Part shown: positions 1 to 38,446 of the stretch, piece after piece
Position numbering within the stretch: the stretch's first letter is position 1
Layout: every line of letters starts with the position of its first letter
UHGV virus genome: UHGV-2079066
Strand: one strand, 5' to 3'
Length of the DNA: 40,071 nucleotides
From: a virus
Translations under genes and position numbers: made by a program
The notes under the pieces: model-generated
Seen by the model: only the letters and a program-made list of their open reading frames with translations
Databases searched by the model: none
What the model was told of the DNA's origin: nothing

Positions 1-73
1 ACGTAGCGCAGCCTGGTAGCGCACCGTCATGGGGTGTCGGGGGTCGGAGGTTCAAATCCTCTCGTGCCGACCA
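1..73 (+). tRNA. tRNA-Pro (anticodon GGG inferred); first ~4 nt cut off by window edge
   Basis: seen: D-arm GCGC/AGCCTGGTA/GCGC, anticodon loop A-T-GGG-G-T, T-arm GGAGG/TTCAAAT/CCTCT, acceptor 3' strand CGTGCCG then A-CCA ending at 73. known: pattern matches recalled enterobacterial tRNA-Pro. Anticodon stem has one U-U mismatch, so isotype is not certain. Confidence 0.75.
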
Positions 74-3106: not shown

Positions 3107-6100
3107 TCAGGAGACATCGCCGGGGTAGCTGGCGTCATCGTACTTATATTTATCGGGATGGTACTGAATGGCTGAAATACTGCTGGTCCCATCACCTCCG
3201 GGAGAAATCTCGCCAACCAGCGCGTCATACCCGACACGGGATGACGAACAGAACAGCAGGCGCGGCGGCTCAATGTACGGACTGTCCATCTCCCATTCTT
3301 CCGGTGCCAGCGCGGCGCTGTATGGAATACGCAGGGTGTAATCATCGATGCGCGTCGGAACCTGTAGCGGCGACGCCCGTCCGTCCTGGTGGCGGATCAC
3401 CACCCGCGGATTTGGAAAACTCCAGTCCGGCGGCTCGCTGACCGACATGATGATCGCTGTGCTGTCCCAGCTCATTTCAGTGATGAGGCAGCTCAGTGTC
3501 TGGTTACCGGGAATATCATCAGTGAGGATGATGCGGTCCATAAACTGGTAGCAGAGCGCGTCCATCTCCGTACTGGTCGTATGCTGCAGGCGCTGGAGCT
3601 GGTATCCGCGCAAGCGGCGCATGCCAATACGGTACGCCCGATCCTGATCCACAACCCCTTCCAGCCTGTAGTCTTCCACCTTCACTGGCGTGGAGTTTCC
3701 GGGCTGACGGCACTGTACGGTTTCTTCTGCCCAGGTCGTGCCGTTGATATACGTCACATCCACGCCGTCATAATCGTCCTGGCTCGGTGCCTTGAACGCG
3801 GTCTGAAGCTCTTCAGTAGTCTCCTGAGGGGTGATCATTCCGGTCCAGTTTTTCACGCCCTCCCGCCCGGCGGATACCAGTCCATCTGACAGCAGGAAAT
3901 ACCCCATCCCTGCGCCGGTAATAATTTTCAGCACCTCGAGTGCCGACTTACTGTCACCGGTGGCCCAGTCGAACGTTTCCCCGCGAGGGGTCCACCAGGT
4001 CTGCTCGAGGGCGTCAATCGCTGCGCGGTCAATTTGCTCAGGGCGGAAACCCAGAGATTCCAGAACGTGATACAGCGCCCCGCTGATACTGCGCGAAGCG
4101 TGTCCGTTATATAGCCGTGTGGGAGTGACGTTAACGCGGCGATCGGACTGGGCCGCCAGGCGGTTACCGGTCCGTACCGTCATCGCAAGGGTCGTCACAC
4201 CGGCATAGCTCCCCGGGCGTCTGCTTAACCGCGAGCGCATCGCCTGCCAGTAAAGATTGTTCACCGTCCTTGCGCCGCCAATTTTTGTCGTGCGCCGCAC
4301 GCGGACTTCATACTGTGCTGCCGCCAGCCCGCTGATGCGCCGGGTATAACCGTGGCCATCTGCGGTTTTGTTGGTGAAGTTATAAACCACCTGCGACCAG
4401 GCTCCCGCAGAGGCGGCATTGCGGTACTGAACCAGAACCCGCACGGTGTGCGACTGGGGATCTCCGTTCTTTTTGTACTGGATGTGGCCATTGGGGAAAA
4501 TGAAGTTATTCTCGATGGCAGTCGTGGTTTCTCCGTCCGGACAGGCAAGGAAGGGCCCCAGCCAGGCGTAATCATCATTCACGCCGGTGACCTGGGCATC
4601 GAGCAGCGTACGCTCGGTGAACCCCGGCCAGGTCGGGTCCACGGTGACAACATCATTACCACTGGTGTCCTGGGTGACGACCACCCGCTCAACCGTGATG
4701 GTCTGATCATCAATATCGGTAATGCGGAACTGGCCGTCGGCATAGCCGATACCGATCCGCTGTACGCCATCAGGGATGCCGGTGAAAGGCTTGCCTGTCG
4801 CACTGTCATACGCCAGCGTGATATTTGCCTCAACCGCCGCGGTACCGCCCGTCGAGGCCACCCCGGTAACATCTACCGTAGCGCTGCCGAATACGGAGAC
4901 CGGAAGAGCGCTGTGACTGATGGCCCCCCCGGCAAACGGGCTGCTTTCCTCGGCAATCTGCAGCCGGCCACCAGTATCGCGCGCGATCAGGCCGGAACCG
5001 GTGAGCTGGTTTGATATGGTATTAACCAGTCCGGACATCGTGACGTAACTGGTAATGAGTGAGATAGCATACGTCGTGCCTTTCCAGCCGATCGTGAACG
5101 TAACCGGCGTTGCCGTGAAATCGTACGTGGTGGGCGCGGCGCTGGCGGTAATGCTCGCTGTCGAACCACCCACCCCGGGCACCGCCGGAACGCCTGCTGC
5201 GTAACTGGCGATATACAGATCATAAGCCGACTCATTAAACGTCACCGAGACAGGCATGCCTGCAGCTGGCCGTAGCTCAGCAACATCACCATAAATCACG
5301 CTGTACCCGCCGGCATTGGCAACCCGGTAGGAGTTTGGTGCTACTACCGTGATTACTGTGCCAACAACCCAGGCCGCCGGGATCTCCGTTTCACCGTCGC
5401 TGGCCGTGGCCGCAATCAGGGAAAGAGTGTTACCGCTCACCAGAATGGCATCAGAGATGATACTGACCGTCTGCGGGCCGGTTGAGCCGAGGTCGAGGCC
5501 TGCGGTACCCGAAGTGGTATTCCCCACCTCGCCGCTGTTGAACCAGTTCTCGGAACGACTATCGGCCGCAACGCTGGCACCCGGTGGATAGATGGTGGCG
5601 CTGACATCACTGCCGAACGCGGATGCTGGCGTGGAGCCAATGCGTATCGCCGACGCGGGCAGTGCCATGTCGCCCACCCCCACGCATAAAAACATGCTGG
5701 TCACGTATTTTTTGGGATCGGCGGAATCGAAGCGCGAAACCGGCTGGACGACGTAATCCGGCCACACCTTATAGCGACCAAATATCTCCCGGATGGGATC
5801 GCCCAGTTTTGCCATATTGGCCTTTGCAGGGTTGAGCTCGAGTTGATCCCCGTTGCCGGGCTGGCTGGCGCCGCCGGTCTGCATGGTGCTCATCATGTAG
5901 ATGGAGTAGGCGGCAGAGGCGACGGCTATTGCCACTGCCGTCCAGACCAGCCAGGCTGGCGCCGCCGGGCCAAACGGAACGGGATACAGGCGTACATCAT
6001 CATCCGGTGCGATAATCTGCGCACTCCACTCATTCGGAGGGATAGACACACCATTCAACTCCAGCGCCACCGGGTGGGTCATGTCAGGCTGCCAGCCCTG

Positions 6101-6199
6101 CACGTTTCTGGTGAACCAGTCGGCAATGGTGGTGCTGGCGTGCTGATGCGACTCCAGCGGTTCGCCTTCGATTCGGGAGGGATAAATTCGGATCGTCAC
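3107..6199 (-). CDS. central tail fiber / host specificity protein (J-like) with gpI-like N-terminal domain
   Basis: seen: 1030 aa; N-terminus has a hydrophobic segment LVWTAVAIAVASAAYSIYMM and a ...NMAKLGDPIREIFGRYKV... stretch resembling recalled lambda gpI C-terminus, then ~850 aa of tip protein. Position after K-like gene. Confidence 0.75.
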   Translation of the reverse strand: MTIRIYPSRIEGEPLESHQHASTTIADWFTRNVQGWQPDMTHPVALELNGVSIPPNEWSAQIIAPDDDVRLYPVPFGPAAPAWLVWTAVAIAVASAAYSIYMMSTMQTGGASQPGNGDQLELNPAKANMAKLGDPIREIFGRYKVWPDYVVQPVSRFDSADPKKYVTSMFLCVGVGDMALPASAIRIGSTPASAFGSDVSATIYPPGASVAADSRSENWFNSGEVGNTTSGTAGLDLGSTGPQTVSIISDAILVSGNTLSLIAATASDGETEIPAAWVVGTVITVVAPNSYRVANAGGYSVIYGDVAELRPAAGMPVSVTFNESAYDLYIASYAAGVPAVPGVGGSTASITASAAPTTYDFTATPVTFTIGWKGTTYAISLITSYVTMSGLVNTISNQLTGSGLIARDTGGRLQIAEESSPFAGGAISHSALPVSVFGSATVDVTGVASTGGTAAVEANITLAYDSATGKPFTGIPDGVQRIGIGYADGQFRITDIDDQTITVERVVVTQDTSGNDVVTVDPTWPGFTERTLLDAQVTGVNDDYAWLGPFLACPDGETTTAIENNFIFPNGHIQYKKNGDPQSHTVRVLVQYRNAASAGAWSQVVYNFTNKTADGHGYTRRISGLAAAQYEVRVRRTTKIGGARTVNNLYWQAMRSRLSRRPGSYAGVTTLAMTVRTGNRLAAQSDRRVNVTPTRLYNGHASRSISGALYHVLESLGFRPEQIDRAAIDALEQTWWTPRGETFDWATGDSKSALEVLKIITGAGMGYFLLSDGLVSAGREGVKNWTGMITPQETTEELQTAFKAPSQDDYDGVDVTYINGTTWAEETVQCRQPGNSTPVKVEDYRLEGVVDQDRAYRIGMRRLRGYQLQRLQHTTSTEMDALCYQFMDRIILTDDIPGNQTLSCLITEMSWDSTAIIMSVSEPPDWSFPNPRVVIRHQDGRASPLQVPTRIDDYTLRIPYSAALAPEEWEMDSPYIEPPRLLFCSSSRVGYDALVGEISPGGDGTSSISAIQYHPDKYKYDDASYPGDVS

Positions 6200-6750
6200 T
6201 TATAGAACTCCACTTTGACGTACTGCCGGAGAAATCGGGCCAGAGGTAATATGGTCACGTTGCGTTTAGGGTTAGCCTCGAGGACGTGCAAAGCGCCATT
6301 AACGGTGACGGCGATTCCCAGATGCGTTACTAGTCCCGCGGTATAACACGCCGCTACCGCACCCTCTTCTGGCTCGCATTTTTCGATACTGCTGAGGAAG
6401 CCGTTGCAGGTGTCATTCATCTGAGAGCCTTCGTTAATAACACCCTCAAAAACAGGCCAGTCCGGCAGACCTAGATCGCGCCTCACCTCATGAATTACGC
6501 CATAACAGTCGAGAACCGGGTAATCGCGGCCGCCCATCTGCCATGTAACCGAGAGGTATTTTTCAGGATTAAACCGACCTTCTCTGGAGGATGAATTCAT
6601 TTTTGAGGCGTTTGATAAGCTCACCATTCGGCTCCTTAATCTCTTTTCTTCCTCTGCTCGTGTGATGAGATCAGGCTGGTCGTGACATTCATGGTGGATA
6701 TTACGAGGATTCTCTGACGGCAGCGGATTTCCGGTATTGTATTTAGCCAT
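6196..6750 (-). CDS. tail assembly/tip protein with NlpC/P60-like Cys-His motifs (gpK-like)
   Basis: seen: ...DCYGVIHEV... and ...GLVTHLGIAVTVNGALHV... resemble NlpC/P60 Cys and His motifs; lies between L-like and J-like genes. Confidence 0.5.
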   Translation of the reverse strand: MAKYNTGNPLPSENPRNIHHECHDQPDLITRAEEEKRLRSRMVSLSNASKMNSSSREGRFNPEKYLSVTWQMGGRDYPVLDCYGVIHEVRRDLGLPDWPVFEGVINEGSQMNDTCNGFLSSIEKCEPEEGAVAACYTAGLVTHLGIAVTVNGALHVLEANPKRNVTILPLARFLRQYVKVEFYK

Positions 6751-16996: not shown

Positions 16997-17214
16997 CGCG
17001 GGAACCTCGCCAGTTTAAAGGGGCCACCCCTGCCCGCTGCGGCAGCCACGGCAGCAGCCTGCTTTCGCTCCCACTCCTGGCGGCCCTTCCGGATCTCGCT
17101 CAGGTTCTCCATGGTCATCTGCTGACCGTTAAACGTAATGGACTTACCCTGCAGGATCGCCATTTCCGCTTCGGTATAGCGGCGAACCATGTCCTGAATA
17201 TCATTGAGATTCAC
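16993..17214 (-). CDS. head-tail joining protein gpW-like
   Basis: seen: GTG start preceded by AGGAGG and overlapping terL stop (GTGA); ~73 aa; position between terL and portal as in lambda. Confidence 0.6.
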   Translation of the reverse strand: MNLNDIQDMVRRYTEAEMAILQGKSITFNGQQMTMENLSEIRKGRQEWERKQAAAVAAAAGRGGPFKLARFPR

Positions 17215-19313
17215 ACCCAGCCTCCTGATGATGATGACCATGCCGATTCACGGGCTGGTTTCTTAGCCTTAGGCTCTGATACTGACGGTTTTGCAACCGG
17301 CTCCGGTGCCACTGCAGGCGCGTCTGGCGATGGCTCAACCACCAGATAACTCTCCCGGCGCGCCCACTCAGGGGCATCAGGCCACTTAATCTTTTCGTAA
17401 CCATGAAGAATGACCAGGGCATGTGCGTAAACCATAAGGTCAAACGCTTCGTTAGCCCCCTTACCAGGCTTCGTCCATTTCCCATCAGCTGATCGCTCCT
17501 CATAGGTCAGTTCGTCGTAAAACCACCCTCCCAGCCAGTCAGGGAAATGCACGAAGTTCGGCCCCGGCACATCGCGCCAAAGCGCGTTGTTGATCCGGTC
17601 TTTCAGTGCGTTGGTCTGGAGAAGGTAGAGAGGGACATCACCGGCGGCCTTCGCGCGCCGGGTAGAACGCCCGGTGTTATCCGGGTAGGTTTTGGTAATC
17701 AGCTTCGCCCTGGTCTGGCTGTCACCCTTGAACAGCCAGACTTTGCGCTGCAGACCGTCACGGCGACAGCGCCGCCAGAACTCATAGGCATTGTCGGTAA
17801 CGCCATCTTCACCACCGGAGTCGACGGCCATGGCCAGCAGACCCATTCGCTTGCCCGGTTCGCCATCAAGCGCCCAGGTTTTCTCCAGCACATCGGTGCG
17901 CAGCAGATCCCAGTCCTCCGGATAGCTGGCAGGATCGATGTGGTAGCTTTCGCCGTCAGGCGTGGTGCGCATCGACTGCATGATGTTGTACCGGTCAACC
18001 ACCCAACGCTCGCCGTGGGCGCCGTAGCCAACAACCTGCACCACAAATCGCCGGTTTTTACCGCCCTGAACATCGACGGTCGCCACCAGGAAGTTGACGC
18101 CAGCAGGCACGCGCCGGCGCTCAACAGGTTCGGCGCGCTGCTGCAGCTCCTCACCTTTACGTTGTTCAATGCTGGAGCGCGGGAGATACGGGAGTCCCCA
18201 GTCGGTGTTAATGACCGTCTTCAGCGTTTCTTCGCTGCCGGTCGCCTCGTACTCCTGTTCAGCGGTCAGCAGTTTGTAAACCAGTTGTGCCCAGGTCTGA
18301 TATGCAGCTGCCGGGCCTTCCATCCAGAACGACGCTATTCGCGACCGCCGTCCGGTGCCCGTTATTGTTCCGCTGCTGTCGATCTGCTGATCCTCACGCA
18401 GCCAGACACCTTTCATATTCAGGGAACGTTTCAGGTCGGCGGTGATCACCCCGGAGCAGGAAGGGCAATGGATACAGGCCGCTTCGCTGGCCTTTACCGG
18501 ATCGCTGATTTCCCGGTAACCGGTCATCGCCGTCATCTCTGGCTGGAAAAACTCACCACAATGCGGACATGGCCAGTACCAGCGGCGGCGGTCGCCGCGG
18601 TTGTACAGTGACAGAATGCCGGTTGTGGGTGGGGCTTCGTGCGCCGAGCTCCGGCGCCACTTCGTATCGCGAATGTCCCGGCCTGGCGAACTCTCAACCA
18701 GCGTCATGCCGGACGACATAAACGTGGTGGTACGCTTGGAGGCCAGGGAAAATGCATCACCTTCCCCGTCGATATCCTCCGGGAAGCGGTCATAATCTGT
18801 CAGGGCGACGCACTTGTAATCCGACGAGGACATGATATTGACCGACGGCCAGCCTATCTTGAGGTAGTTACCCGCCCTGAATGTCCTGTCGTAAACGTTG
18901 TTATCGTTCCTGCGGGGACTCAGGCGGGTTGCCACTTCCGGACTGCAACGGAATGTGCGATCCAGTCGTTTCTTCGAGTGCTCGCGGGCCTTTTCCTCTG
19001 TCATCTGAATAATCAGCATGTCAGACGGGTCGCAGACCACGTTATAAACCACCCACCCGTCAATCAGGCCGATTGTCTTCCCCGTTCGCGCCGGGCCGAC
19101 AAACACCACCGCGTCATACTCACGCGACGCCAGGCAGTTCATTGGCTCGAGTACATACGGAGCCAGGTTCGGATCCCAGGGAACGGAGTTACCGGCACCC
19201 ATTGGCACGCGCATAAATTTACTGACTGCATCGGCCACCAGCATGCGGCGTGGGGCACGAAGTATTCCAGGGACATCCTTTCGGATCCCCCGGGCAGATG
19301 CCCGCTTCGCCAT
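17211..19313 (-). CDS. terL: terminase large subunit (lambda gpA-like)
   Basis: seen: 700 aa with Walker-A-like VFVGPARTGKT; start overlaps terS stop. Confidence 0.9.
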   Translation of the reverse strand: MAKRASARGIRKDVPGILRAPRRMLVADAVSKFMRVPMGAGNSVPWDPNLAPYVLEPMNCLASREYDAVVFVGPARTGKTIGLIDGWVVYNVVCDPSDMLIIQMTEEKAREHSKKRLDRTFRCSPEVATRLSPRRNDNNVYDRTFRAGNYLKIGWPSVNIMSSSDYKCVALTDYDRFPEDIDGEGDAFSLASKRTTTFMSSGMTLVESSPGRDIRDTKWRRSSAHEAPPTTGILSLYNRGDRRRWYWPCPHCGEFFQPEMTAMTGYREISDPVKASEAACIHCPSCSGVITADLKRSLNMKGVWLREDQQIDSSGTITGTGRRSRIASFWMEGPAAAYQTWAQLVYKLLTAEQEYEATGSEETLKTVINTDWGLPYLPRSSIEQRKGEELQQRAEPVERRRVPAGVNFLVATVDVQGGKNRRFVVQVVGYGAHGERWVVDRYNIMQSMRTTPDGESYHIDPASYPEDWDLLRTDVLEKTWALDGEPGKRMGLLAMAVDSGGEDGVTDNAYEFWRRCRRDGLQRKVWLFKGDSQTRAKLITKTYPDNTGRSTRRAKAAGDVPLYLLQTNALKDRINNALWRDVPGPNFVHFPDWLGGWFYDELTYEERSADGKWTKPGKGANEAFDLMVYAHALVILHGYEKIKWPDAPEWARRESYLVVEPSPDAPAVAPEPVAKPSVSEPKAKKPARESAWSSSSGGWV

Positions 19314-19801
19314 CAGTCCTCCTCTGGCTCATCCTCCTCCGGTTCTGCGTCCAGCACGCGCTGCGCAATCTGGTCGCGAAGATCGTCAATCACACTCTGC
19401 ACGCGGCTGACAGCTGCGGGGTTCAGCGCGCAGTCACGCTCCAGAATGTCCGGTAACGTTTCCAGCACCTGCACCACAGCTTTTGCCATGACAGAAAATT
19501 CACGGGCCACCTCATCTGCCGGGATTAACTGGCCGGTATCCTGCTCAAATTTGAGCCGCTCGTTTTCCGCTTTCCAGTGGGCGAGCCTGTCCGAGGGCGT
19601 CATATCTTCGGCGCTGGACGCGACGACGGGCGCCATCAGTTCGGTGAGCACATCAGTGATGAGGTAGAGTTTGAGTTTGTTGTTGCTGCCCAGCGCAGGC
19701 TCGAGTTGCTTAAGCCTGGCGGCAACGGTCTGGCGATGAACGCCGGTGATCCCTGCCAGCTGATTGATGTTCAGCTTCAGGGTGGAAAGCTCCTGGTCCA
19801 T
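19313..19801 (-). CDS. terS: terminase small subunit (Nu1-like, N-terminal HTH)
   Basis: seen: LKLNINQLAGITGVHRQTVAARLKQ resembles recalled Nu1 HTH; acidic C-terminus. Start is ATG 19801 or GTG 19813; neither has a clear SD. Confidence 0.75.
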   Translation of the reverse strand: MDQELSTLKLNINQLAGITGVHRQTVAARLKQLEPALGSNNKLKLYLITDVLTELMAPVVASSAEDMTPSDRLAHWKAENERLKFEQDTGQLIPADEVAREFSVMAKAVVQVLETLPDILERDCALNPAAVSRVQSVIDDLRDQIAQRVLDAEPEEDEPEED

Positions 19802-19904
19802 GATGGTGAACACTTTTTGAACGATTCGACATCATTGCAAAACGTCACTGATAAAAATCATACAGTTATGCACATGATGATGATGACCCTGGATCACGAA
19901 AACT

Positions 19905-19940
19905 AGCCGTTTTCCGCGTGCCCGCCGCCTCGTGGCAGGC
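19905..19940 (-). other. candidate cos site (cosN-like)
   Basis: seen: minus strand GAGGCGGCGGGCACGCGGAAAACGGC ~115 bp upstream of terS resembles recalled lambda left end GGGCGGCGACCTCGCGGGTTTTCGC. Exact nick positions unknown. Confidence 0.4.
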
Positions 19941-20043
19941 CACCCCTCCGGGAGGACCCGTCCATATGAGAATGGTTATCAGTTGAGGTGGGGATCTGGC
20001 GGGGTTGCCCGGCTAGTCTGGGCGCTGGATGGGGCTGATGGTT

Positions 20044-20383
20044 AGAAGCCGAGGCGAACGCGACCCTCAGGGTCGTTTGCATTGGTGGTAATCCACGCAG
20101 TGCCTGCAACGGCGTTGTCATCAGTGCCATCCTTCGAGCTACTGGTCAACTTGCCATCTTTCGTCAGCCAGAGTCGGACCCCGCGCTGCTAGGTCTCAGC
20201 TGCAACCTTCGGCAAGACGAATACTCCGGTCATCATCAGAACACCATCACCGCTGGCGGCGATATCGTGCTGAGCGATACCGATGATCGCACCAACAATC
20301 ACCGGTTGACCTGACACCACATCTTTTGTGGTCCCGTTATGCCAGTCCATTGTATTGCCGTCCTGGTAGTAGTTTTTAGCCAT
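20044..20383 (-). pseudogene. second gpD-like paralog interrupted by in-frame TAG (stop at 20189-20191)
   Basis: seen: ATG 20383 with GAGG SD gives MAKNYYQDGNTMDWHNGTTKDVVSGQPVIVGAIIGIAQHDIA...LPKVAAET-TAG-QRGSDLWLTKDGKLTSS...; homology to the 13133-13456 paralog continues through the stop. Confidence 0.5.
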
Positions 20384-20536
20384 ATTGGGCCTCTGGTTAT
20401 GCCTGATAAGCAGGTTAAAAGAATAGGTATTACGTTCGTTGCGCCGGGTGCGCTGAGGGGTAATTGACATGAGCATGTGTCTTCACATGATGATGTTAAC
20501 TATCAGCCCCGCGAGAGCGAGGCTGCAAATAGCATG

Positions 20537-20836
20537 CTACGGTCTTGAAGTGCTCACGATGTATGAATCCACCACGCCGTCCTTATTTACTTTGACGACG
20601 AGCGATTTGCCCTGCCCCACGCTGAACGCTGTTGCATGAGCGTAGGTCCAACCATAAATCTTATTGCCCTCGGAATCGGCAGTTACTGAGGTTGGCTTAC
20701 CGAACTTCTGCAAAACAGCCTGCTCAGTCGTAACCCCCTTTTGGATTGAGGTGACATCTGCTTCCGAAAAGTCTTTACCCACCGTCGCGCAACCGACCAG
20801 ACCCAAAGCAATGACACCCAGAATTGTCTTTTTCAT
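20537..20836 (-). CDS. outer-membrane lipoprotein, SmpA/OmlA (BamE-like) family; moron
   Basis: seen: signal peptide plus lipobox LVGC; DVTSIQKGVTTEQAVLQKFGKP resembles recalled BamE motif; AAGGGA SD. Confidence 0.6.
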   Translation of the reverse strand: MKKTILGVIALGLVGCATVGKDFSEADVTSIQKGVTTEQAVLQKFGKPTSVTADSEGNKIYGWTYAHATAFSVGQGKSLVVKVNKDGVVDSYIVSTSRP

Positions 20837-20993
20837 TGATATATCCCTTATTTAAAAAGAGGATAATCCTACCACCGAGCCATCTGAAGCGCGAAGACTA
20901 CATGGCCTGCGGTAAAGTCTTTGTGATCAGCGCAGTAGCCTGAACGGTCCGTAGTCGTACCGGGACAACCTCTCTTGCGACATGCGCGAGGGA

Positions 20994-21227
20994 TTAACGC
21001 TGGCATGGTTCAATCCTCACAGAGCCGTGAAGCGTATGCCGCTTCACTTCACCGTTCTCTGTCGTCATATAACCACGCTCATCAGGAACGGCTGCGATTA
21101 CTTCGCCCTTCTCATCGTCAGCAGTGAAGACATGCTTAACCTCTATACCATCGAGAAAAACAGCGTATCGCTCTACACCGAGATTAATCTTCCTGCCGGG
21201 ATCGTCATCTAATACAGTTAGACGCAT
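20994..21227 (-). CDS. hypothetical small protein (77 aa)
   Basis: seen: ATG 21227 with AAGAGG SD; MRLTVLDDDPGRKINLGVERYAVFLDGIEVKHVF.... Track ORF starts 18 codons upstream without SD. Confidence 0.5.
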   Translation of the reverse strand: MRLTVLDDDPGRKINLGVERYAVFLDGIEVKHVFTADDEKGEVIAAVPDERGYMTTENGEVKRHTLHGSVRIEPCQR

Positions 21228-21372
21228 ATGACCTCTTGTTAGGTTCATTTTTGTGTTCGAAGTGGCATCAAATTGAGACATAACTCTAATAACTTAAACT
21301 TTCTCATTCTTTAGTATTGATATTGGCCTTAATGGCTCAATGTTTATTAACTCATCAATAAGAGGTTTAATT

Positions 21373-21813
21373 ATGAGCATCGACTATTTAGACGTCCGTA
21401 AGGTTATTAAGTGTGCAGAACACAAAAAGGCTTTAGATGAAAAAGCAATCAAACTTAAGAAAAACGTTATTGACTCATGCAAAGAAAGTTCTTTAACTTC
21501 TAACACCTTGATTTTCAATCAAGATGCAGAAAACAGACTAACCCTAGAACTTTCAACATATGGGTTAGAACTCGTTTTCAATGAGAAACTGGTAGTCATC
21601 AATGAAGCCCCTCTTTTGAAGTTCGTTGCAACTGACTCAACTGATGAAAATAACAAGGAAGTAATTAGCTTCTTTTTAGGTAAAAATGGGTTGGTTTACA
21701 TTGGGGAGTACAAACCTAATCCATCTTATGATTATGAAGATGTTGATCTATTTCTCGATATACTTGAAGCTACATTAAAAGCGCTCAAGTCTTCCGATAA
21801 AATATCCTATTAA
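21373..21813 (+). CDS. hypothetical acidic protein, AT-rich moron on the opposite strand
   Basis: seen: ATG 21373 with AGAGG SD; markedly AT-rich codon usage versus neighbours; convergent with 21859-22089; hairpin 21820-21845 downstream. Confidence 0.55.
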   Translation: MSIDYLDVRKVIKCAEHKKALDEKAIKLKKNVIDSCKESSLTSNTLIFNQDAENRLTLELSTYGLELVFNEKLVVINEAPLLKFVATDSTDENNKEVISFFLGKNGLVYIGEYKPNPSYDYEDVDLFLDILEATLKALKSSDKISY

Positions 21814-21858
21814 CTGATGGCAGGCACCTGATACGTGCCTGCTGTAATGCATGATAGT

Positions 21859-22089
21859 TTAAGAGAAGGAGAGGCCCAAATTAACCAGTACATCTTTTTT
21901 CTCCTCTATACGCCGATCAAGTTCATCCACTGCATGCGGGCGTATGGCATCAAGAAAGGCATTATCCTGATAGGTCGACTGGATTGTCACCCCAAGTCCG
22001 GCACCGCTTTCCAGTATGCCTTTCTGTCGCTGTAGCTCTTTCATCTCGTTATAGATGTAATGCGCGTCACTTAGGTTCTCTACGTTCAC
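21859..22089 (-). CDS. hypothetical small protein (76 aa)
   Basis: seen: GTG start preceded by GAAGGAG at 7 nt; overlaps 3' end of upstream lipoprotein ORF. Confidence 0.45.
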   Translation of the reverse strand: MNVENLSDAHYIYNEMKELQRQKGILESGAGLGVTIQSTYQDNAFLDAIRPHAVDELDRRIEEKKDVLVNLGLSFS

Positions 22090-22309
22090 GACCTGGCTCC
22101 TTCATGCAGTTAGCCTGCACTGATTTGTTGTGCGCCAATATGTCCCGCTTCGTCTGTTTATCCAGCACGGCAATATCGTGCTCAGTGAGGTAGATGATGC
22201 TCACCCAGTCACAGGCCGTGTCCGTTACTTCAGGTTTTGCGGGTAAATTTTTCGCGCAACTCGCGGTCAACATCGTCATCAGGAAGATGATTAACAGTCT
22301 GCTGTACAT
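22067..22309 (-). CDS. lipoprotein, candidate o-spanin (Rz1-like)
   Basis: seen: signal peptide plus lipobox LTASC; start lies inside the 3' part of the i-spanin-like ORF in another frame. inference: spanin pair from architecture. Confidence 0.5.
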   Translation of the reverse strand: MYSRLLIIFLMTMLTASCAKNLPAKPEVTDTACDWVSIIYLTEHDIAVLDKQTKRDILAHNKSVQANCMKEPGRERREPK

Positions 22310-22499
22310 CCCTGGCTCCTTTTGTTGTTTCTACCCGGCGTTCGGCTACCGCTTCTGTAGCTGCTGCACGCTCTTCAGTGCGTTGCTGGTCCGCTTTTGT
22401 TTCTGCGATACTGGTACCGCGAGATTTACCCAGACCAAAGGCACCTGCAATTGCTGCCAGCGCGGCAACAATCAGGCCGATAATCATTTCAAGTCCCAT
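22230..22499 (-). CDS. candidate i-spanin (Rz-like), N-terminal TM plus charged helix
   Basis: seen: MGLEMIIGLIVAALAAIAGAFGL then Glu/Arg/Ala-rich region; immediately downstream of endolysin. Shorter (89 aa) than typical Rz. Confidence 0.5.
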   Translation of the reverse strand: MGLEMIIGLIVAALAAIAGAFGLGKSRGTSIAETKADQQRTEERAAATEAVAERRVETTKGARDVQQTVNHLPDDDVDRELREKFTRKT

Positions 22500-22506
22500 A
22501 GTGACC

Positions 22507-23121
22507 TCACACCAGTGCGGCTTTAGCTTTGGCGTAACGTTCACGGCGGTCTTTAATGCCGTTCTGCCCGCCGTTAATAATCTGCGTGACGCGTTCCACA
22601 TCCCCCGAATAGAGGAGACAACCGCGTAACGTGAAGTACCATGCCGCCGAACGGGCCGCGTGTCGCTCTTGCGTCAATAGTTCCGGAGTGCTCACAAGGT
22701 CAAGCTTTAGCGCCGTACCGCATTTGGTGTAGTTCTCACGACCAGTGATTTGCAGCAGGCCACGACCGCGATATTTCCAGCCGTCACCCTGGCTGTTATT
22801 CCCCATGCGGTCACCGTAAACCAGATTGGCTATTTGTGGCTGGTGAGCGACCTGTTTACCATCAACACGCCCCAGCATTTCACACTGATACGATGTCAGG
22901 CGATTACCGAAGGTTTTCTTCAGCCCTTCAACCGAGTAGTTAAAACTCTCGGCCAACGAAGTAAAGCCAGCAGACTCATGCCCGACTTGTGCAATGAACA
23001 TAGCCTGATCATTAACCGCTGTAATTCCAAACTCTTTCATTGCCGCGTCAATGTGCGGAAACCAGCGTGCAGAAAGCCCGGCGCTGATACCAGCCGCCTG
23101 CTGAAATTGTGATTGGTTCAT
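22507..23121 (-). CDS. endolysin, glycoside hydrolase family 19 (chitinase-like lysozyme)
   Basis: seen: ...FIAQVGHESAGFTSL...GRGLLQITGRENY...; no N-terminal signal-anchor segment. Confidence 0.85.
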   Translation of the reverse strand: MNQSQFQQAAGISAGLSARWFPHIDAAMKEFGITAVNDQAMFIAQVGHESAGFTSLAESFNYSVEGLKKTFGNRLTSYQCEMLGRVDGKQVAHQPQIANLVYGDRMGNNSQGDGWKYRGRGLLQITGRENYTKCGTALKLDLVSTPELLTQERHAARSAAWYFTLRGCLLYSGDVERVTQIINGGQNGIKDRRERYAKAKAALV

Positions 23122-23402
23122 TATTGCCTCAGATGATCAACCAGGCGTGCCACGTTGCCTCTGACGGCGACCAGCACGGACAGGAAAATAATGTTGGCCC
23201 CGATAGTGGCCCACGATGAATAAGGGTAGATACCGCACAGATACGCCAGCGGTACGGCGCTATAAATGACCGTAAGCAGCCAGGCTAAGCGAGATATCCA
23301 CGGTCGATGTCTGGAGTCACCGCGACGGTAAAACATCAGGGTCAGCACTACCCCAGCGCAAAGAAGCGCATTGATTGTTGCCGATGGGTCATTTAGTACC
23401 AC
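23121..23402 (-). CDS. holin-like membrane protein (second holin or antiholin)
   Basis: seen: 93 aa with 2-3 hydrophobic segments, directly upstream of and overlapping the endolysin start. Confidence 0.55.
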   Translation of the reverse strand: MVLNDPSATINALLCAGVVLTLMFYRRGDSRHRPWISRLAWLLTVIYSAVPLAYLCGIYPYSSWATIGANIIFLSVLVAVRGNVARLVDHLRQ

Positions 23403-23775
23403 CTGAACCTCCCCGGCGCGTTATCAGCGCCACCAGCGAGCCGACATCCTGGTTGTTCAGGAACGTCAGGATTTTGACAGCTAAAGCCGAAACGATTACG
23501 GCACCGATGGCATCCAGAGGCTTATCACTGTAACCAGTCCAGTCAGCCAGCTTTGAACCCACCAGCCCTGAGCAGATGATCCCGGCGATGTAGGACACGA
23601 CAAAATACGCCAGCCGACGCGTTGCACTAAGGTCCGCAGCTGTTGCAATGTAAAATACAGCTCCGGCAAATGCGCCAAACACCACGCCGTAATCGGTTCC
23701 GGACAGAAATCCATAGACGCTAGCTCCCGTCAGGACACCACCAGCCAGCCCAGTACCGGAAATCGGATCGGACAT
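23389..23775 (-). CDS. holin
   Basis: seen: 128 aa, Gly/Ala-rich TM helices, first gene of lysis cassette downstream of a terminator. Confidence 0.6.
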   Translation of the reverse strand: MSDPISGTGLAGGVLTGASVYGFLSGTDYGVVFGAFAGAVFYIATAADLSATRRLAYFVVSYIAGIICSGLVGSKLADWTGYSDKPLDAIGAVIVSALAVKILTFLNNQDVGSLVALITRRGGSGGTK

Positions 23776-23863: not shown

Positions 23864-24400
23864 TTACAACGATCTAATCTCTTTCGATAAACAGTCCAAC
23901 ATTTTATTAGCCTCCTTATCAAAATTATGACCAGCGTTTAGAATTATATTCTTCGCCAATTTCTTATCGTCAACTTCACCTGACTGTATTTTGAAGAAAA
24001 CAGAATTGGCTGGTTTCAGCAATTTTCTAGATTCATCAAACATAACGCTAATCTCAGGAAAATAAACACCAGAGATTAAAATAATTCTATCACCAACTCC
24101 TTTATACTCAGGGTTTTTACTGAGAATTTCGTCTGATTTATCGCCAATGTCCTCAGATTTAAAACACCCATCAATACAATTTATCCAGCTCATATGATTG
24201 GCAAAAAGCAATTTTTTATAAAGTATTAATGCCTCATAAAGCTGTTCACCCTTTTCAATTTTCCTTCTATTTCTTTCTGAGCGCCACTCATGCGACTGCC
24301 TACTACTGTTCTGGAGGTAACTTGTAAGAGAAGTTATCAATGTACCCACAAAAATCCCCAAAGCAGCAATTAATGCAACATTTTCTTTAGTCAGTTCCAT
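23864..24400 (-). CDS. hypothetical single-pass membrane protein, AT-rich moron between Q and holin
   Basis: seen: ATG 24400 preceded by GGTGA; MELTKENVALIAALGIFVGTLITSLTSYL (TM) then ~150 aa soluble domain; low GC. Track ORF extends 38 codons upstream across a terminator hairpin. Confidence 0.55.
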   Translation of the reverse strand: MELTKENVALIAALGIFVGTLITSLTSYLQNSSRQSHEWRSERNRRKIEKGEQLYEALILYKKLLFANHMSWINCIDGCFKSEDIGDKSDEILSKNPEYKGVGDRIILISGVYFPEISVMFDESRKLLKPANSVFFKIQSGEVDDKKLAKNIILNAGHNFDKEANKMLDCLSKEIRSL

Positions 24401-24411
24401 ACTATCACCAT

Positions 24412-24434
24412 AAAAAAACCCCACCGAGGTGAGG
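24412..24434 (-). terminator. tR'-like intrinsic terminator downstream of candidate late promoter
   Basis: seen: minus strand CCUCACCUCGGUGGGG followed by U7. Confidence 0.5.
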
Positions 24435-24452
24435 TTATCATAGTGATCGATA

Positions 24453-24480
24453 GTTATACAAAGCCCATCATTGATGTCAA
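24453..24480 (-). promoter_or_regulatory. candidate late promoter (pR'-like): -35 TTGACA, 16-nt spacer, -10 TATAAC
   Basis: seen: TTGACA at 24480-24475 and TATAAC at 24458-24453 on minus strand, immediately downstream of Q. inference: Q-modified readthrough. Confidence 0.4.
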
Positions 24481-24523
24481 ATATACACAAATACGGCAAC
24501 ATTGCAAACATCATGACGCTAAA

Positions 24524-25354
24524 TTACGCGATATTTATCACATCTTCACTTTTAGTCACCCGATTCAGTTGAGAGCTTGAATAACTCTCCTCCTGGAAAC
24601 ATTTGGTCACCAGGCTTTCATAGAATGGTTTCCAGCTATAACGCCACGTTCGGTCAGGCAGACTCGGCAACTCAGAAAAAACACCTCGATAGGCAACCGA
24701 TGATTTTGGCCTGCTGTATCCCCGCCCTTCGCAGCGCTTACATTCTTTGTAAACTGGTACGCCCTGCAGTTCTGTCGCTTTACGGTCAACCGTCTTGCCA
24801 GTTCCGCCACACTGGCATCGCTTACTTAACTTTCCGGTACCATGGCATCGCGAACATAAACTTTGCTCGGAGTCAGTTACTTCTCGCTTTACCTCAAAGT
24901 CAGATGGTGACTGTCTCAGGTCTTTTGCCCATTGTGGCAATCGCATTGTGTAATGGCTTTTAGTCACGGTTTTAGTGGTTGTAAGCAACCCTTTACCACT
25001 ACATTTTGGGCATGCCACACAATCAGCTGCTGATGAGGAATAATCGTTATAGGCAAACCGGGCAAGGATACGCATGCAGAGGGGAAACTTTTTCCCTGAT
25101 GCTTTGCGAATGGCCATGGGCGCATGCTCTTTCGCGTACTCAGTTAGCCAGGTTATTGACGCCTCTCTGTCCTGGCTGCTGATACCAGCTTTACCTAAAA
25201 ACATTGCCAGCCCGATCCCCGCATCGGCCTGAGTCATCCCCAATGCAGCCATTACATCAGTAACCGTCAGTTGTTCACTGGCTGTCGCTCTACTGGTATC
25301 TGATATGTGCATGCCTTTAGGCGCAAAAAACTTTAAAACATTGTCCAGATTCAT
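24524..25354 (-). CDS. late antiterminator Q-like protein with four CxxCxGxG zinc-finger repeats
   Basis: seen: ATG 25354 with GGAG SD; CPKCSGKG, CSRCHGTGK, CQCGGTGK, CKRCEGRG; located just upstream of the late promoter and lysis genes. Confidence 0.55.
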   Translation of the reverse strand: MNLDNVLKFFAPKGMHISDTSRATASEQLTVTDVMAALGMTQADAGIGLAMFLGKAGISSQDREASITWLTEYAKEHAPMAIRKASGKKFPLCMRILARFAYNDYSSSAADCVACPKCSGKGLLTTTKTVTKSHYTMRLPQWAKDLRQSPSDFEVKREVTDSEQSLCSRCHGTGKLSKRCQCGGTGKTVDRKATELQGVPVYKECKRCEGRGYSRPKSSVAYRGVFSELPSLPDRTWRYSWKPFYESLVTKCFQEESYSSSQLNRVTKSEDVINIA

Positions 25355-25370
25355 ACGGTCTCCATACTTC

Positions 25371-26399
25371 TTAAGCTTTCGCAATTACGCCGATCGCCAG
25401 CGCCCGATCCATAAAACGCAGTAGCAGCTCAAGCTGCGTACCATGCTTCTGCTCGAATGCTGGTACATCGGCGTGTAACTCGTCGTGGCACTCTCTGCAC
25501 AGAGGGATCACGAAGAGGTCATGGGCTTTTGTTGCTGTACCACCCATACCGTGCCCTACGATATGGTGCGGATCATCTGCTGGCCGTCGGCAACACTCAC
25601 AGGGTTGTGTTTTAACCCAGCGGGTGTACGTCTCATTTATCCAGCGGCGACGTTTTGGCCTGAGCATAAAAGACTCTGGCGACTCCGGATCAACAGAGAG
25701 CGTGAGGATCTTCTTCGCCTTCTCCTGCACAAGTCTGGTTGCTGACGAGGAAGGCACTATGTCGCTTTCCCTCATGACAGAACGGATCTTCTCATCCGGA
25801 AGGCGCAACCCTTTGTGCGCAACGCTTTCCGGAATAACATCAGCCAGGTCGTTTCTGACCATCCACCAGCACAGTTCAGGAAGCGTCAGGATATGCGACT
25901 CGGGAAAACCAGAATCACGCCGAATGACTTCCAGAATCCAGGATACCAGGTTTCCGGCCGCTATACCTGCAAGCTGTTCGGTATGCTGCCCCGACAAAGT
26001 GTGATCGCAATGCCAGCACAGGCGAATACTTCCTGGTGGGTGCCGCATTGTTGTGAAGTTCTTGTCGTGCCACGTTGAATGTGGCCACTGGCATTCAAAC
26101 CGATTACTCAACCATTGCTCAAGGGAAGGAAGCCCACCGGCACGCTGAATAACCCTCTCATTCTCGAAGACCTGACGCATTACCGGATCATCAGCTAGCG
26201 GCTGAATGGCTGCCGGAACAGCCCCGGTACTGAATGACGCCATTTCTTCTGGTTCAGGCTCGAGCAGAACGCGACCACGCATGAAGAGGTGCATCAGTTC
26301 CGTACCGGGACGGAACAGCACAATCCCCATACGATGGGCGATCTCGGGGGTAAGCAGAGCTCTCACGCGACCTGCCCCCTGGCAATGTGTTCTGCCCAC
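25371..26399 (-). CDS. DUF968-like protein with C-terminal HNH-like Cys/His motif
   Basis: seen: ...CECCRRPADDPHHIVGHGMGG...CRECHDELH; 342-codon ORF. Start is uncertain (overlaps upstream gene). Confidence 0.55.
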   Translation of the reverse strand: MGRTHCQGAGRVRALLTPEIAHRMGIVLFRPGTELMHLFMRGRVLLEPEPEEMASFSTGAVPAAIQPLADDPVMRQVFENERVIQRAGGLPSLEQWLSNRFECQWPHSTWHDKNFTTMRHPPGSIRLCWHCDHTLSGQHTEQLAGIAAGNLVSWILEVIRRDSGFPESHILTLPELCWWMVRNDLADVIPESVAHKGLRLPDEKIRSVMRESDIVPSSSATRLVQEKAKKILTLSVDPESPESFMLRPKRRRWINETYTRWVKTQPCECCRRPADDPHHIVGHGMGGTATKAHDLFVIPLCRECHDELHADVPAFEQKHGTQLELLLRFMDRALAIGVIAKA

Positions 26400-30845: not shown

Positions 30846-31478
30846 ATGGATACCGTTGGCAGCAGACTGAGATTTAGAAGAAAGCAGAAAAAACTTACCC
30901 AGCGCGATGTGGCTGAGTGGGCAGGAGTAAGCGCGTCTGCTGTGACCCAGTGGGAAAGTGATTTAACAAAACTTTCTGGTGAGAACTTGATATTGGTGTG
31001 TAAATGCCTTCAGTGCTCGCCAGAATGGTTGGTTTTTGGTTCAGGCGATATCGAAAATGGCATTAACATCAACTTGATGTCTGCCAGAGAGGTCCCTCTC
31101 ATATCATGGGTGCAAGCTGGTAATTGGACGGAAGTAATTGGAAATCCTAATAATGAACAAGTGAAAACCACTCGAAAACTTTCTGATTCCGCCTTTGCTT
31201 TGAGGGTTAAGGGAGATTCAATGACTTCTAGCCAGGAGTTGAGTATTCCTGAAGGTTCTATTGTTATTGTTGAACCAGAGTTCGGCTTCGTGGATGAGGC
31301 AAACGGTAAAATTGTCGTTGCTCAAACGGTATCTGGTGGTGAGGCAACTTTAAAAAAGCTGGCGATAGACCCACCGTTTTCGTACCTAATCCCACTGAAT
31401 CCTGCGTTTAAACCCATTGAGGTGAATCAAGAGACCAATCTAATTGGGATAGTTAAACAAATTATCATTGACCTTTAG
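30846..31478 (+). CDS. cI: CI-like repressor (HTH_XRE plus LexA-type S24 autopeptidase domain)
   Basis: seen: N-terminal LTQRDVAEWAGVSASAVTQWE; Ala-Gly in VQAGNW; Ser in KGDSM and downstream Lys. Confidence 0.9.
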   Translation: MDTVGSRLRFRRKQKKLTQRDVAEWAGVSASAVTQWESDLTKLSGENLILVCKCLQCSPEWLVFGSGDIENGININLMSAREVPLISWVQAGNWTEVIGNPNNEQVKTTRKLSDSAFALRVKGDSMTSSQELSIPEGSIVIVEPEFGFVDEANGKIVVAQTVSGGEATLKKLAIDPPFSYLIPLNPAFKPIEVNQETNLIGIVKQIIIDL

Positions 31479-37267: not shown

Positions 37268-38446
37268 ATGGCAGCCAGGCCAAGAAAAAGAGAATACCGC
37301 CATCTACCCGAATATCTAATATTCGATAAAGATCGCGGCGTTTATAAATTTACGCTTATAACTGGGAAAAAAAAGAATATCGGTAAAGACAGGGCTGTAG
37401 CGATCGCTATAGCCCGTGAATACAACCTCAGAATGAGGCCTACAAATGTACCATCAGTAGAAATACTTGTCCGTGAATCTGGCGGTGTAACGGGGGAGGC
37501 AAAACCATTTGCTGAACACGTAGATCATATTATGGAGCGGGCGATTGAGAATGAGCGCCCTTCACAGAATACACTCGACGATTGGAACAACGATGCTCTG
37601 AGGGTAAAAGAATTCTTCATCAGCATACCAGCTTGCGATATTGAGCTGGAGCATGTGAACGCCTATATAAACCACTACCATGCCGAAGCATCAGCAAACG
37701 TACAAAACAGGAAAGTCAGCTTTCTTAAAAAATTATTCTCCTATGCGGTCGATGAATCGCTAATGTTCGATAACCCGGCAACCCGTAAAAAAATGCGTAG
37801 GATAGAAGAGAAGAAACGCCAGCGCCTCTCACTTGATAACTTTAAAGCTATCAGGCGCGCAGCTGAACCATGGTTACGGACCGCGATGGATTTGGCATTG
37901 CAGACAACACACGCACGATTGGAGGTTTCACGGATCCGTTACTCCATAAGAGAGCCTAAAGACGGCATCTGCGGGTGTCTATGGTTAGCACAACCAGAAA
38001 ACGGTATTTATGGGACGCTATACATCCACAGGCAGAAAGTGCAAAAAAAAGAGGCATCTCACGTTGCAATCCCGATTGGGGAAGAGTTGAAGCGGATAAT
38101 TGACGATAGTCGAGATAATGTTGCCAGTCCGTTTGTCGTTCACAGAATCCCAGAACGGCAGGTTAAACGCAGCAAAGAGGTTTCACACCCTACTCAAGTT
38201 GCACCGGATTATTTAAGTCGGTCGTTTTCAGCTACGCGTGACATGCTAGGTTTATGCGACCATCTACCGATGGACGAAAGACCAACCTTTCACGAAATCA
38301 GAGCGCTGGCTGCGCATCTTTTCGATCAGCAGGGTATCGATCCACAAGGGCGAATGGCACATAGCGATGCGAAATCAACAAAGATCTACACGCAAAACCA
38401 TATCGACTGGGTAGTAGTTCCTCATGGCGAGATTCAGACAGCATAA
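37268..38446 (+). CDS. int: tyrosine integrase
   Basis: seen: 392 aa; C-terminal HEIRALAAHLF...KIYTQNH carries the His-x-x-Arg and catalytic Tyr of the R-H-R-Y family; adjacent to att. Confidence 0.9.
   Translation: MAARPRKREYRHLPEYLIFDKDRGVYKFTLITGKKKNIGKDRAVAIAIAREYNLRMRPTNVPSVEILVRESGGVTGEAKPFAEHVDHIMERAIENERPSQNTLDDWNNDALRVKEFFISIPACDIELEHVNAYINHYHAEASANVQNRKVSFLKKLFSYAVDESLMFDNPATRKKMRRIEEKKRQRLSLDNFKAIRRAAEPWLRTAMDLALQTTHARLEVSRIRYSIREPKDGICGCLWLAQPENGIYGTLYIHRQKVQKKEASHVAIPIGEELKRIIDDSRDNVASPFVVHRIPERQVKRSKEVSHPTQVAPDYLSRSFSATRDMLGLCDHLPMDERPTFHEIRALAAHLFDQQGIDPQGRMAHSDAKSTKIYTQNHIDWVVVPHGEIQTA

Follow-up and report, generated by a model that had tools for sequence, protein, structure and literature searches.

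A reversed, AT-rich single-gene cassette, very probably a moron, at the lysis/packaging boundary of an enterobacterial prophage

Results and discussion

A gene inserted between two adjacent late genes

The UHGV virus genome UHGV-2079066 (40,071 nucleotides, analysed over its whole length and hereafter called the window) is, judging by its gene content, a lambdoid prophage of enterobacteria whose late operon runs on the minus strand. Positions 20994 to 22089, the region studied here, hold a plus-strand gene of 146 codons flanked by two small minus-strand genes, orf77 and orf76. We conclude that the plus-strand gene belongs to an AT-rich single-gene cassette of about 620 bp, made up of an upstream region, a Shine-Dalgarno (SD) sequence, the gene itself and a hairpin, and that this cassette, lying reversed in the late operon, is very probably a moron. 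Its parts are the following:

21236-21858, no strand assigned: inserted or replaced segment relative to the SZQ1 prophage, about 620 bp, 34% GC
21273-21300, plus strand: candidate promoter-like site TTGAGA-16-TAAACT, matching at 9 of 12 positions, within the upstream stretch that moves together with the gene
21360-21365, plus strand: SD sequence AAGAGG, 7 nt 5' of the ATG, conserved in the homologous loci L004, L008 and L009
21373-21813, plus strand: gene of the probable moron, 146 aa, from ATG at 21373 to TAA at 21813
21817-21845, no strand assigned: stable hairpin between this gene and the convergent orf76, starting 4 nt past the stop codon

Among 5,426 complete E. coli genomes, a megablast search with the region returned one near-identical copy, in strain ARL09/232 (99.8%), together with the SZQ1 prophage, which matches both flanks at 92% and is missing the middle. 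The slot is empty in SZQ1: the homologues of orf77 and orf76 are neighbours there, with 19 bp between the annotated genes and 11 bp from the orf76 stop to the orf77 SD, and the two flanking proteins are 92% and 83% identical to those of the window. In a three-way alignment the homology stops at 21235 and restarts at 21859, leaving about 620 bp here versus 11 bp in SZQ1. The genes on either side of the cassette are thus neighbours in a related prophage that lacks it, and insertion of this kind is the defining criterion of a moron. The segment common to independent contexts is slightly shorter, approximately 21248-21848, with edges taken from the L008, L009 and S88-type copies. No terminal direct or inverted repeats and no target duplication were found at the ends of the insert, and a transposon-like origin was rejected on these grounds.

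The base composition also sets the segment apart (gene 34.2% GC, GC3 33%, insert 34.4%; flanks 51.8% and 52.7%; window 52.3%). A previous sequence-only reading of this region had described an AT-rich plus-strand gene with its own SD and a downstream hairpin, and all of these elements lie where it had placed them, at 34% against about 52% GC. An in-frame ATG upstream, at 21340, would give a product of 157 aa; conservation among homologues begins at M1 of the 146-aa form. The hairpin has the core GCAGGCAC-N7-GTGCCTGC at 21820-21842 and a folding energy of -20.4 kcal/mol as RNA (z = -3.7), and none of 200 shuffles folds equally well. Among L004, L008 and L009 the stem is kept and the loop is variable, while the homologues in L003 and L016 are followed by other, canonical terminator-like hairpins. 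An Rfam scan of the studied region detected no RNA family. Because it lies on the strand opposite to the late operon, the gene would need a promoter of its own, and about 125 nt upstream of it are conserved at approximately 72% in S88-type copies.

The moron concept, reportedly set out for lambdoid and HK97-like phages by Juhala and colleagues and by Hendrix and colleagues in 2000, fits the cassette in several respects: a single gene with flanking control elements, AT-rich, dispensable, and situated between genes that are adjacent in a relative. The window differs in that its promoter is a candidate only and its hairpin has no canonical U-tract. In lambda, bor is an opposite-strand gene just downstream of Rz/Rz1 that is expressed in lysogens. 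The cassette shares with it the slot after the spanins and before cos and terminase, the reversed orientation and the single gene; Bor, however, is a secreted lipoprotein, whereas the 146-aa protein is predicted to be cytoplasmic, has neither signal peptide nor lipobox and shows no sequence similarity to Bor.

Distribution and constancy of the cassette

Homologues of the 146-aa protein were gathered from a search of 5.8 billion proteins (12 clusters), an exhaustive profile search of 1.84 billion and IMG/VR (10 loci). Its sequence diversity is small, the exhaustive profile search having yielded no more than 8 clusters at 50% identity; a 1037-aa match from that search (P0016) was discarded as a repeat-protein artefact. 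In every context long enough to judge, the homologue runs against the late operon, with a lysis cassette on one side and a block of HNH, P27-family small terminase and large terminase genes on the other, and the head module in contexts that are large enough is of the HK97 type. Slot and orientation are kept in at least seven diverged variants. For instance, the same slot is occupied in E. coli ARL09/232 and S88, in Pectobacterium wasabiae (52% identity), on a Logan contig (80%) and in the IMG/VR loci, and the distant P0013 and P0014 lineages (39% and 32% identity) retain both slot and orientation. The most distant member, P0017 (17% identity), comes from a 1.2-kb contig with two unannotated divergent neighbours only, on which the slot is not judgeable.

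The lysis cassette and the adjacent small gene of L008 and of the S88 type are unrelated to those of the window, and since the lysis-side neighbours differ in this way, the cassette seems to move as a unit. Its homology with L008 and L009 stops just past the hairpin, whereas the S88-type homology spans 21248-21813, that is, the 125-nt upstream region and the gene, at 72% nucleotide identity. On the other side, the S88, Pectobacterium, L010 and L018/L019 contexts lack orf77 and have the gene directly next to HNH. The contrast in composition recurs as well, the gene having 30-38% GC versus 48-56% in the flanks in all nine loci examined.

Codon comparison places the 146-aa gene under purifying selection, with pairwise ratios of nonsynonymous to synonymous substitution rates (dN/dS) of 0.20-0.42, and members with as little as 17% identity still have 143-148 aa. 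Two IMG/VR copies, in L013 and L014 (about 6001-6437), align in two frames with an apparent frameshift near codon 51, and may be pseudogenes or sequencing errors. All three genes of the region proved to be conserved in related prophages, where the sequence-only reading had named a lack of such conservation as evidence against itself.

The gene is carried by 106 of the 5,426 complete E. coli genomes (about 2%), and in 105 of these it is the S88-type variant, 63% identical, which in E. coli S88 is ECS88_2890 / WP_000026993.1 (L024, 5124-5564). Carriers of this variant include S88 itself, the type strain DSM 30083 / ATCC 11775 and several isolates of extraintestinal pathogenic E. coli (ExPEC), and contig records of it number at least 1,000. 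Under the annotation 'MULTISPECIES [Enterobacteriaceae]', a protein identical to the 146-aa product of the window occurs on 399 contigs, which come from Salmonella, Citrobacter and E. coli; Salmonella Emek and Citrobacter freundii are further carriers. A comparison of the cassette with 50,697 GenBank phage records, distant mode included, gave no match, and a contig scan of the GTDB representative genomes yielded no confirmed locus, these genomes evidently being without the prophage. A literature search on WP_057107373, WP_000026993 and ECS88_2890 found no paper.

Sequence and predicted fold of the 146-aa protein

The protein has a pI of 4.88, with 25 D+E versus 19 K+R, a net charge of -6 and a grand average of hydropathy of -0.23. 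The charge is bipolar: residues 1-40 are lysine-rich with a net charge of +3, and residues 41-146 carry a net charge of -9. The description 'acidic' in the sequence-only reading therefore agrees with the pI and needs to be tempered, as the protein is only mildly acidic overall and combines a basic N-terminal helix with an acidic remainder. A DNA-mimic role of the Ocr or ArdA kind was considered and rejected in view of the basic N-terminal helix and a net charge of no more than -6. No hydrophobic stretch, membrane segment, signal peptide or lipobox is present in the 146-aa sequence.

AlphaFold2, given a 10-sequence alignment, produced a model with a mean predicted local distance difference test score (pLDDT) of 73 and a predicted TM score (pTM) of 0.67. 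In the model a helix of 31 residues (8-38) is followed by six antiparallel strands and, at the C-terminus, a second helix (124-140), which suggests that the protein is a soluble, cytoplasmic alpha/beta sandwich. The predicted fold is weakly frataxin-like, and the Frataxin_Cyay and YbjN Pfam profiles did not match the 146-aa protein; the matched folds are all small alpha/beta sandwiches that function through partner binding, and the resemblance is at the level of the fold only. Close relatives share the polar motifs YLDV..V.KCAEHK and E.K.NPSY.YE and a C-terminal ISY. Across the whole family, distant members included, only hydrophobic core positions are conserved, which argues against a conserved catalytic site.

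No credible family was found for the protein and its distant members in Pfam, PHROG, NCBIfam or PADLOC. Pfam gave no match at E <= 0.1 for the window protein or four distant members, a sequence-profile search of the PDB with the 146-aa protein returned nothing, and no similarity to a known anti-defence protein was seen in PDB or BFVD. Matches to DNA_pol3_delta, DivIVA, DUF1062 and PDC-M24A were rejected, being below cut-offs and not family-wide.

The only significant match among viral models is A0A873WDE3 of Burkholderia phage Mana (TM 0.74/0.72, E = 1.6e-5), which we take to be CPT_Mana_015, the only 151-aa CDS in the Mana record. This protein is likewise of unknown function and from a temperate phage, its gene being followed by an annotated terminator and lying between the tail-completion and V genes; it differs in that the gene is on the same strand as the operon and the phage is P2-like. 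Sequence kinship between the 146-aa family and Mana gp15 was rejected at an hhalign probability of 0.1%. A paper on defence in Gifsy prophages (PMC12724215) was also set aside, as it concerns an unrelated ATPase.

Other occupants of the slot

Prophages anchored by orf76, or by orf77 and HNH, were compared for what they carry at this junction. In the prophage of E. coli EC2001 (L021, 3892-4362, minus strand) a 156-aa protein with a C-terminal Tad2-like domain (PF11195, E = 5e-26) is encoded between the lysis cassette and orf77/HNH, on the late-operon strand. Tad2/DUF2829 proteins sequester the Thoeris signal gcADPR (bioRxiv 10.1101/2023.05.01.538930). This Tad2-like protein resembles ours in occupying the same slot and in being a small soluble binder, although in sequence and fold it is unlike the 146-aa protein, in which the DUF2829 domain was not matched, and it differs in strand. 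The prophage of E. coli CAU16175 (L023, 2917-3456, plus strand) has a YfbU-family gene (PF03887, E = 2e-10) on the strand opposite to the late operon, whose product also shows a weak Cfr10I/Bse634I-like match; it is a second, unrelated backwards moron at the same junction. F9792 has a 187-aa protein of unknown function in the slot. Because the occupants vary and one of them is Tad2-like, the lysis/packaging boundary in these prophages is a cargo hotspot with at least one recognised anti-defence family, and the suggestion of the sequence-only reading that this is a typical spot for cargo is borne out by the Tad2-like, backwards YfbU-family and 187-aa genes found there.

Proposed function and alternatives

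Taken as a whole, the best explanation in our view, with chances that we put at about even, is a moron cassette from which a lysogen expresses a binding protein engaged in phage conflict. The gene would be transcribed from its own promoter, in the lysogen or directly on DNA entry, rather than late, and such independent, non-late expression, to which the opposite-strand geometry points, is moderately probable. Late, Q-modified transcription would cross the gene antisense to reach orf77 and beyond and so shut it down in lytic growth; because late transcription must traverse the gene in this direction, expression would be limited to lysogens or to the early phase of infection. The product would then be a small, soluble, non-enzymatic protein of the alpha/beta-sandwich type acting through partner binding, preferably as a cytoplasmic block that binds a protein of a superinfecting phage or a competing mobile element. 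A defence or exclusion role of this sort is a candidate that we put forward tentatively. The more specific assignment to superinfection exclusion, abortive infection or anti-defence in the sequence-only reading finds no backing in a PADLOC model, a membrane segment, a lipobox or a known domain.

Several observations weigh against this explanation. The sigma-70-like matches upstream are weak (9/12) and not above shuffles, either here or in homologous loci, and the hairpin at 21817-21845 has no U-tract and does not score as a canonical intrinsic terminator for either strand. Confidence in the structure model is medium, and its fold matches are generic. PADLOC-DB v2 contains no significant defence-protein model for the family, its sole match being PDC-M24A (E = 0.009, 14 bits) in 2 of 13 family members. 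The gene seems to be dispensable, since two IMG/VR copies appear frameshifted. Moreover, most of the known single-gene superinfection-exclusion proteins are lipoproteins or sit in the membrane, and the 146-aa protein does neither; in having no transmembrane segment, signal peptide or lipobox it differs from the membrane and lipoprotein exclusion proteins of the SieA/SieB, Imm, Cor, Sim and Bor-like kinds.

Alternatively, the gene could serve the phage itself as an anti-defence gene, transcribed from its own promoter on DNA entry and neutralising an immune protein or signal of the host. Like many anti-defence proteins, the product is small, soluble and apparently non-enzymatic, the same slot carries the Tad2-like domain in EC2001, and a dN/dS of 0.2-0.4 combined with fast divergence suits a conflict gene. 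The gene is also always found beside HNH and cos, and the ancestral HK97-type layout puts the cassette about 0.6-1 kb from the right cos end. In lambda the right cos end is injected first, so a cassette near this end would bring promoter and then gene into the cell early. However, injection of the lambda type is fast and a first-in position gains little; the Tad2-like gene is on the late-operon strand and not reversed; known anti-defence proteins in PDB or BFVD show no likeness to the product; and a reversed gene with a hairpin behind it is what classically marks lysogen-expressed morons. We regard an anti-defence gene as unlikely. A lysogenic-conversion factor that benefits the lysogen by acting on host physiology and not on phages, for instance by modulating a host regulator, a chaperone or an Fe-S or stress pathway in the manner of YbjN- or frataxin-like proteins, is somewhat harder still to accept. 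Position and orientation are those of lambda bor, and the S88-type variant is fixed in many ExPEC genomes resembling sequence type ST95, but the Frataxin_Cyay and YbjN Pfam profiles give no match, the first helix is lysine-rich where frataxin has an acidic ridge, and the distribution tracks prophages and not host lineages.

A role internal to the phage, in which the protein, or the convergent unit with its hairpin, tunes late read-through into HNH and terminase or the timing of lysis versus packaging, would agree with the invariant location at the lysis/packaging boundary beside HNH and with a hairpin between convergent genes. It is nevertheless very improbable, as close relatives are without the cassette (SZQ1) or have unrelated genes there, and as the cassette is still intact in the window, where HNH is cut to 45 codons and the HK97-type terminase is replaced by a lambda type; the protein sequence is also under selection, which argues against a mere transcriptional roadblock. 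Least credible is a functionless passenger, a hitch-hiking ORF kept by linkage alone. The lack of a known domain, the two frameshifted copies and the absence from most related prophages would be expected of such an ORF, but a dN/dS well under 1, the retention of length and core down to 17% identity and the recurrence in unrelated flanking contexts and in four genera speak against it.

The flanking genes orf77 and orf76

The two minus-strand ORFs of 77 and 76 aa with good SDs that the sequence-only reading had reported are both present:

20994-21227, minus strand: orf77, 77 aa, matching phrog_3540 and predicted to be all-beta; SD AAGAGG 4 nt 5' of the ATG
21859-22089, minus strand: orf76, 76 aa, matching phrog_5415 over its full length; GTG start with SD AAGGAG 7 nt upstream

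The same reading had grouped all three genes as a cluster of small unknown cargo genes. This holds for the middle gene, which is the insert, and has to be abandoned for the other two. Both have the normal GC of the phage (47-49%) and run in the direction of the late operon, and each overlaps its operon neighbour, with 23 nt shared between the GTG start of orf76 and the 3' end of the o-spanin gene and 13 nt between the orf77 stop and the HNH start; on account of these overlaps they appear to be translationally coupled to those neighbours. Homologues occur in hundreds of prophages of Citrobacter, Klebsiella, Salmonella, Enterobacter and E. coli, whether or not these carry the insert. Normal composition, co-directionality, overlaps and wide spread together mark orf76 and orf77 as real, conserved late-operon genes and not cargo.

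Remote homology, which the sequence-only reading had proposed to look for, exists for these two genes and, at a credible level, not for the 146-aa protein. Both families carry the annotation 'unknown function': the match of orf76 covers positions 1-76 of 76 of phrog_5415 (E = 1.9e-38) and that of orf77 positions 17-70 of 76 of phrog_3540 (E = 2.8e-10). The homologues of orf76 form 316 clusters from Citrobacter, Klebsiella, Salmonella, Kluyvera and E. coli, and among the 120 listed nearly all are 76 aa long and 80-96% identical. Those of orf77 form 258 clusters from the same genera plus Enterobacter, Cronobacter and Atlantibacter, and substitutions between orf77 homologues cluster at third codon positions (10/17 and 20/31). 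The third-position bias of orf77, together with the PHROG matches of both, indicates that the two small ORFs are real. In E. coli ARL09/232, RefSeq/PGAP calls an antisense shadow ORF (L001 6104-6280, plus strand, equivalent to window 21036-21212) and not orf77; the codon-position bias and the 258 homologue clusters favour the minus-strand frame of 77 aa. A 95-aa version of orf77 obtained mechanically (start 21281) was rejected as an artefact that extends into the insert, homologues being mostly 75-78 aa. A suspected resemblance of orf77 to DUF3297 is not claimed, as Pfam gave no match.

The prophage around the cassette

Matches to PHROG families and annotations give a gene order that runs from a CI-like repressor (30846-31478, plus strand) through a CII-like protein, an O-like replication protein, a methyltransferase, Ant and DUF968/HNH to the Q antiterminator (24524-25384), two holins, a GH19 endolysin and the i- and o-spanins (22067-22601), and then to the studied region. 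Beyond it are a lambda-type small terminase (19313-19813), the large terminase (17211-19313), and then portal and further genes. Citrobacter or a close relative is the probable host, given that the flanking genes have their best homologues in Citrobacter freundii. The remaining features are:

37268-38446: integrase, at the far end of the window
22067-23775, minus strand: lysis cassette, assigned from PHROG 1275 and 1026 and the RefSeq annotation of the near-identical L001
22067-22309, minus strand: o-spanin
22230-22601, minus strand: i-spanin
22507-23121, minus strand: GH19 endolysin
23121-23402 and 23389-23775, minus strand: two holins
20869-21006, minus strand: remnant of an HNH endonuclease gene, 45 aa, corresponding to phrog_144 positions 17-48 of 175

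In related HK97-type prophages the HNH gene comes after the 77-aa ORF. In the window, the homology of the remnant to the relatives ends near 20933 (alignment to L001 and L002), and a tblastn match spans 30 of its 45 residues. The stretch 19814-20993 is a recombination scar, where the HK97-type module of HNH, small and large terminase of the relatives has been swapped for a lambda-type terminase. Inside the scar are a fragment of a head-decoration gene (20189-20476, phrog_122 positions 1-63 of 109) and an intact lipoprotein gene (20537-20836, lipobox LVGC, phrog_3135) with weak Cor/BamE-like matches.

A second AT-rich gene is found at 23864-24514 on the minus strand, between the Q antiterminator and the holins. 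It encodes 216 aa at 35% GC with one N-terminal hydrophobic segment, matches nothing in Pfam, PHROG, PADLOC or NCBIfam, and was not found in the related loci L001-L014. The interval between Q antiterminator and holins is the classical pR' moron slot, and the gene is a candidate for a defence or membrane protein. At the edge of the window, a partial tRNA gene (1-70, plus strand; Rfam RF00005, 41 bits) is truncated by the end of the sequence; it is possibly the attachment site of the prophage, though the integrase sits at the opposite end.

Implications

The cassette is an uncharacterised example of a well-known kind of element, a moron, and as such would not surprise a phage biologist; were it to show no phenotype, it would be merely another hypothetical moron. 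The family is nevertheless common, in about 2% of complete E. coli genomes, yet it is without a model in Pfam, PHROG or NCBIfam, and no paper on it was found; it is a reasonable candidate for experiments. If the protein is a conflict factor, it would offer an easily testable single-gene candidate, with a matched empty-site prophage (SZQ1) and tractable carrier strains. It is conceivable, though doubtful at present, that the family represents a new kind of single-protein cytoplasmic phage-conflict factor, an exclusion or anti-defence binder with an undescribed target, and that the boundary between lysis and HNH-terminase genes is a general hotspot of HK97-type enterobacterial prophages. In that case the 146-aa family, the Tad2-like gene, the backwards YfbU-like gene and the unknowns of 187 and 119/134 aa would be the hotspot genes to mine, and the slot could guide searches for more defence or anti-defence cargo.

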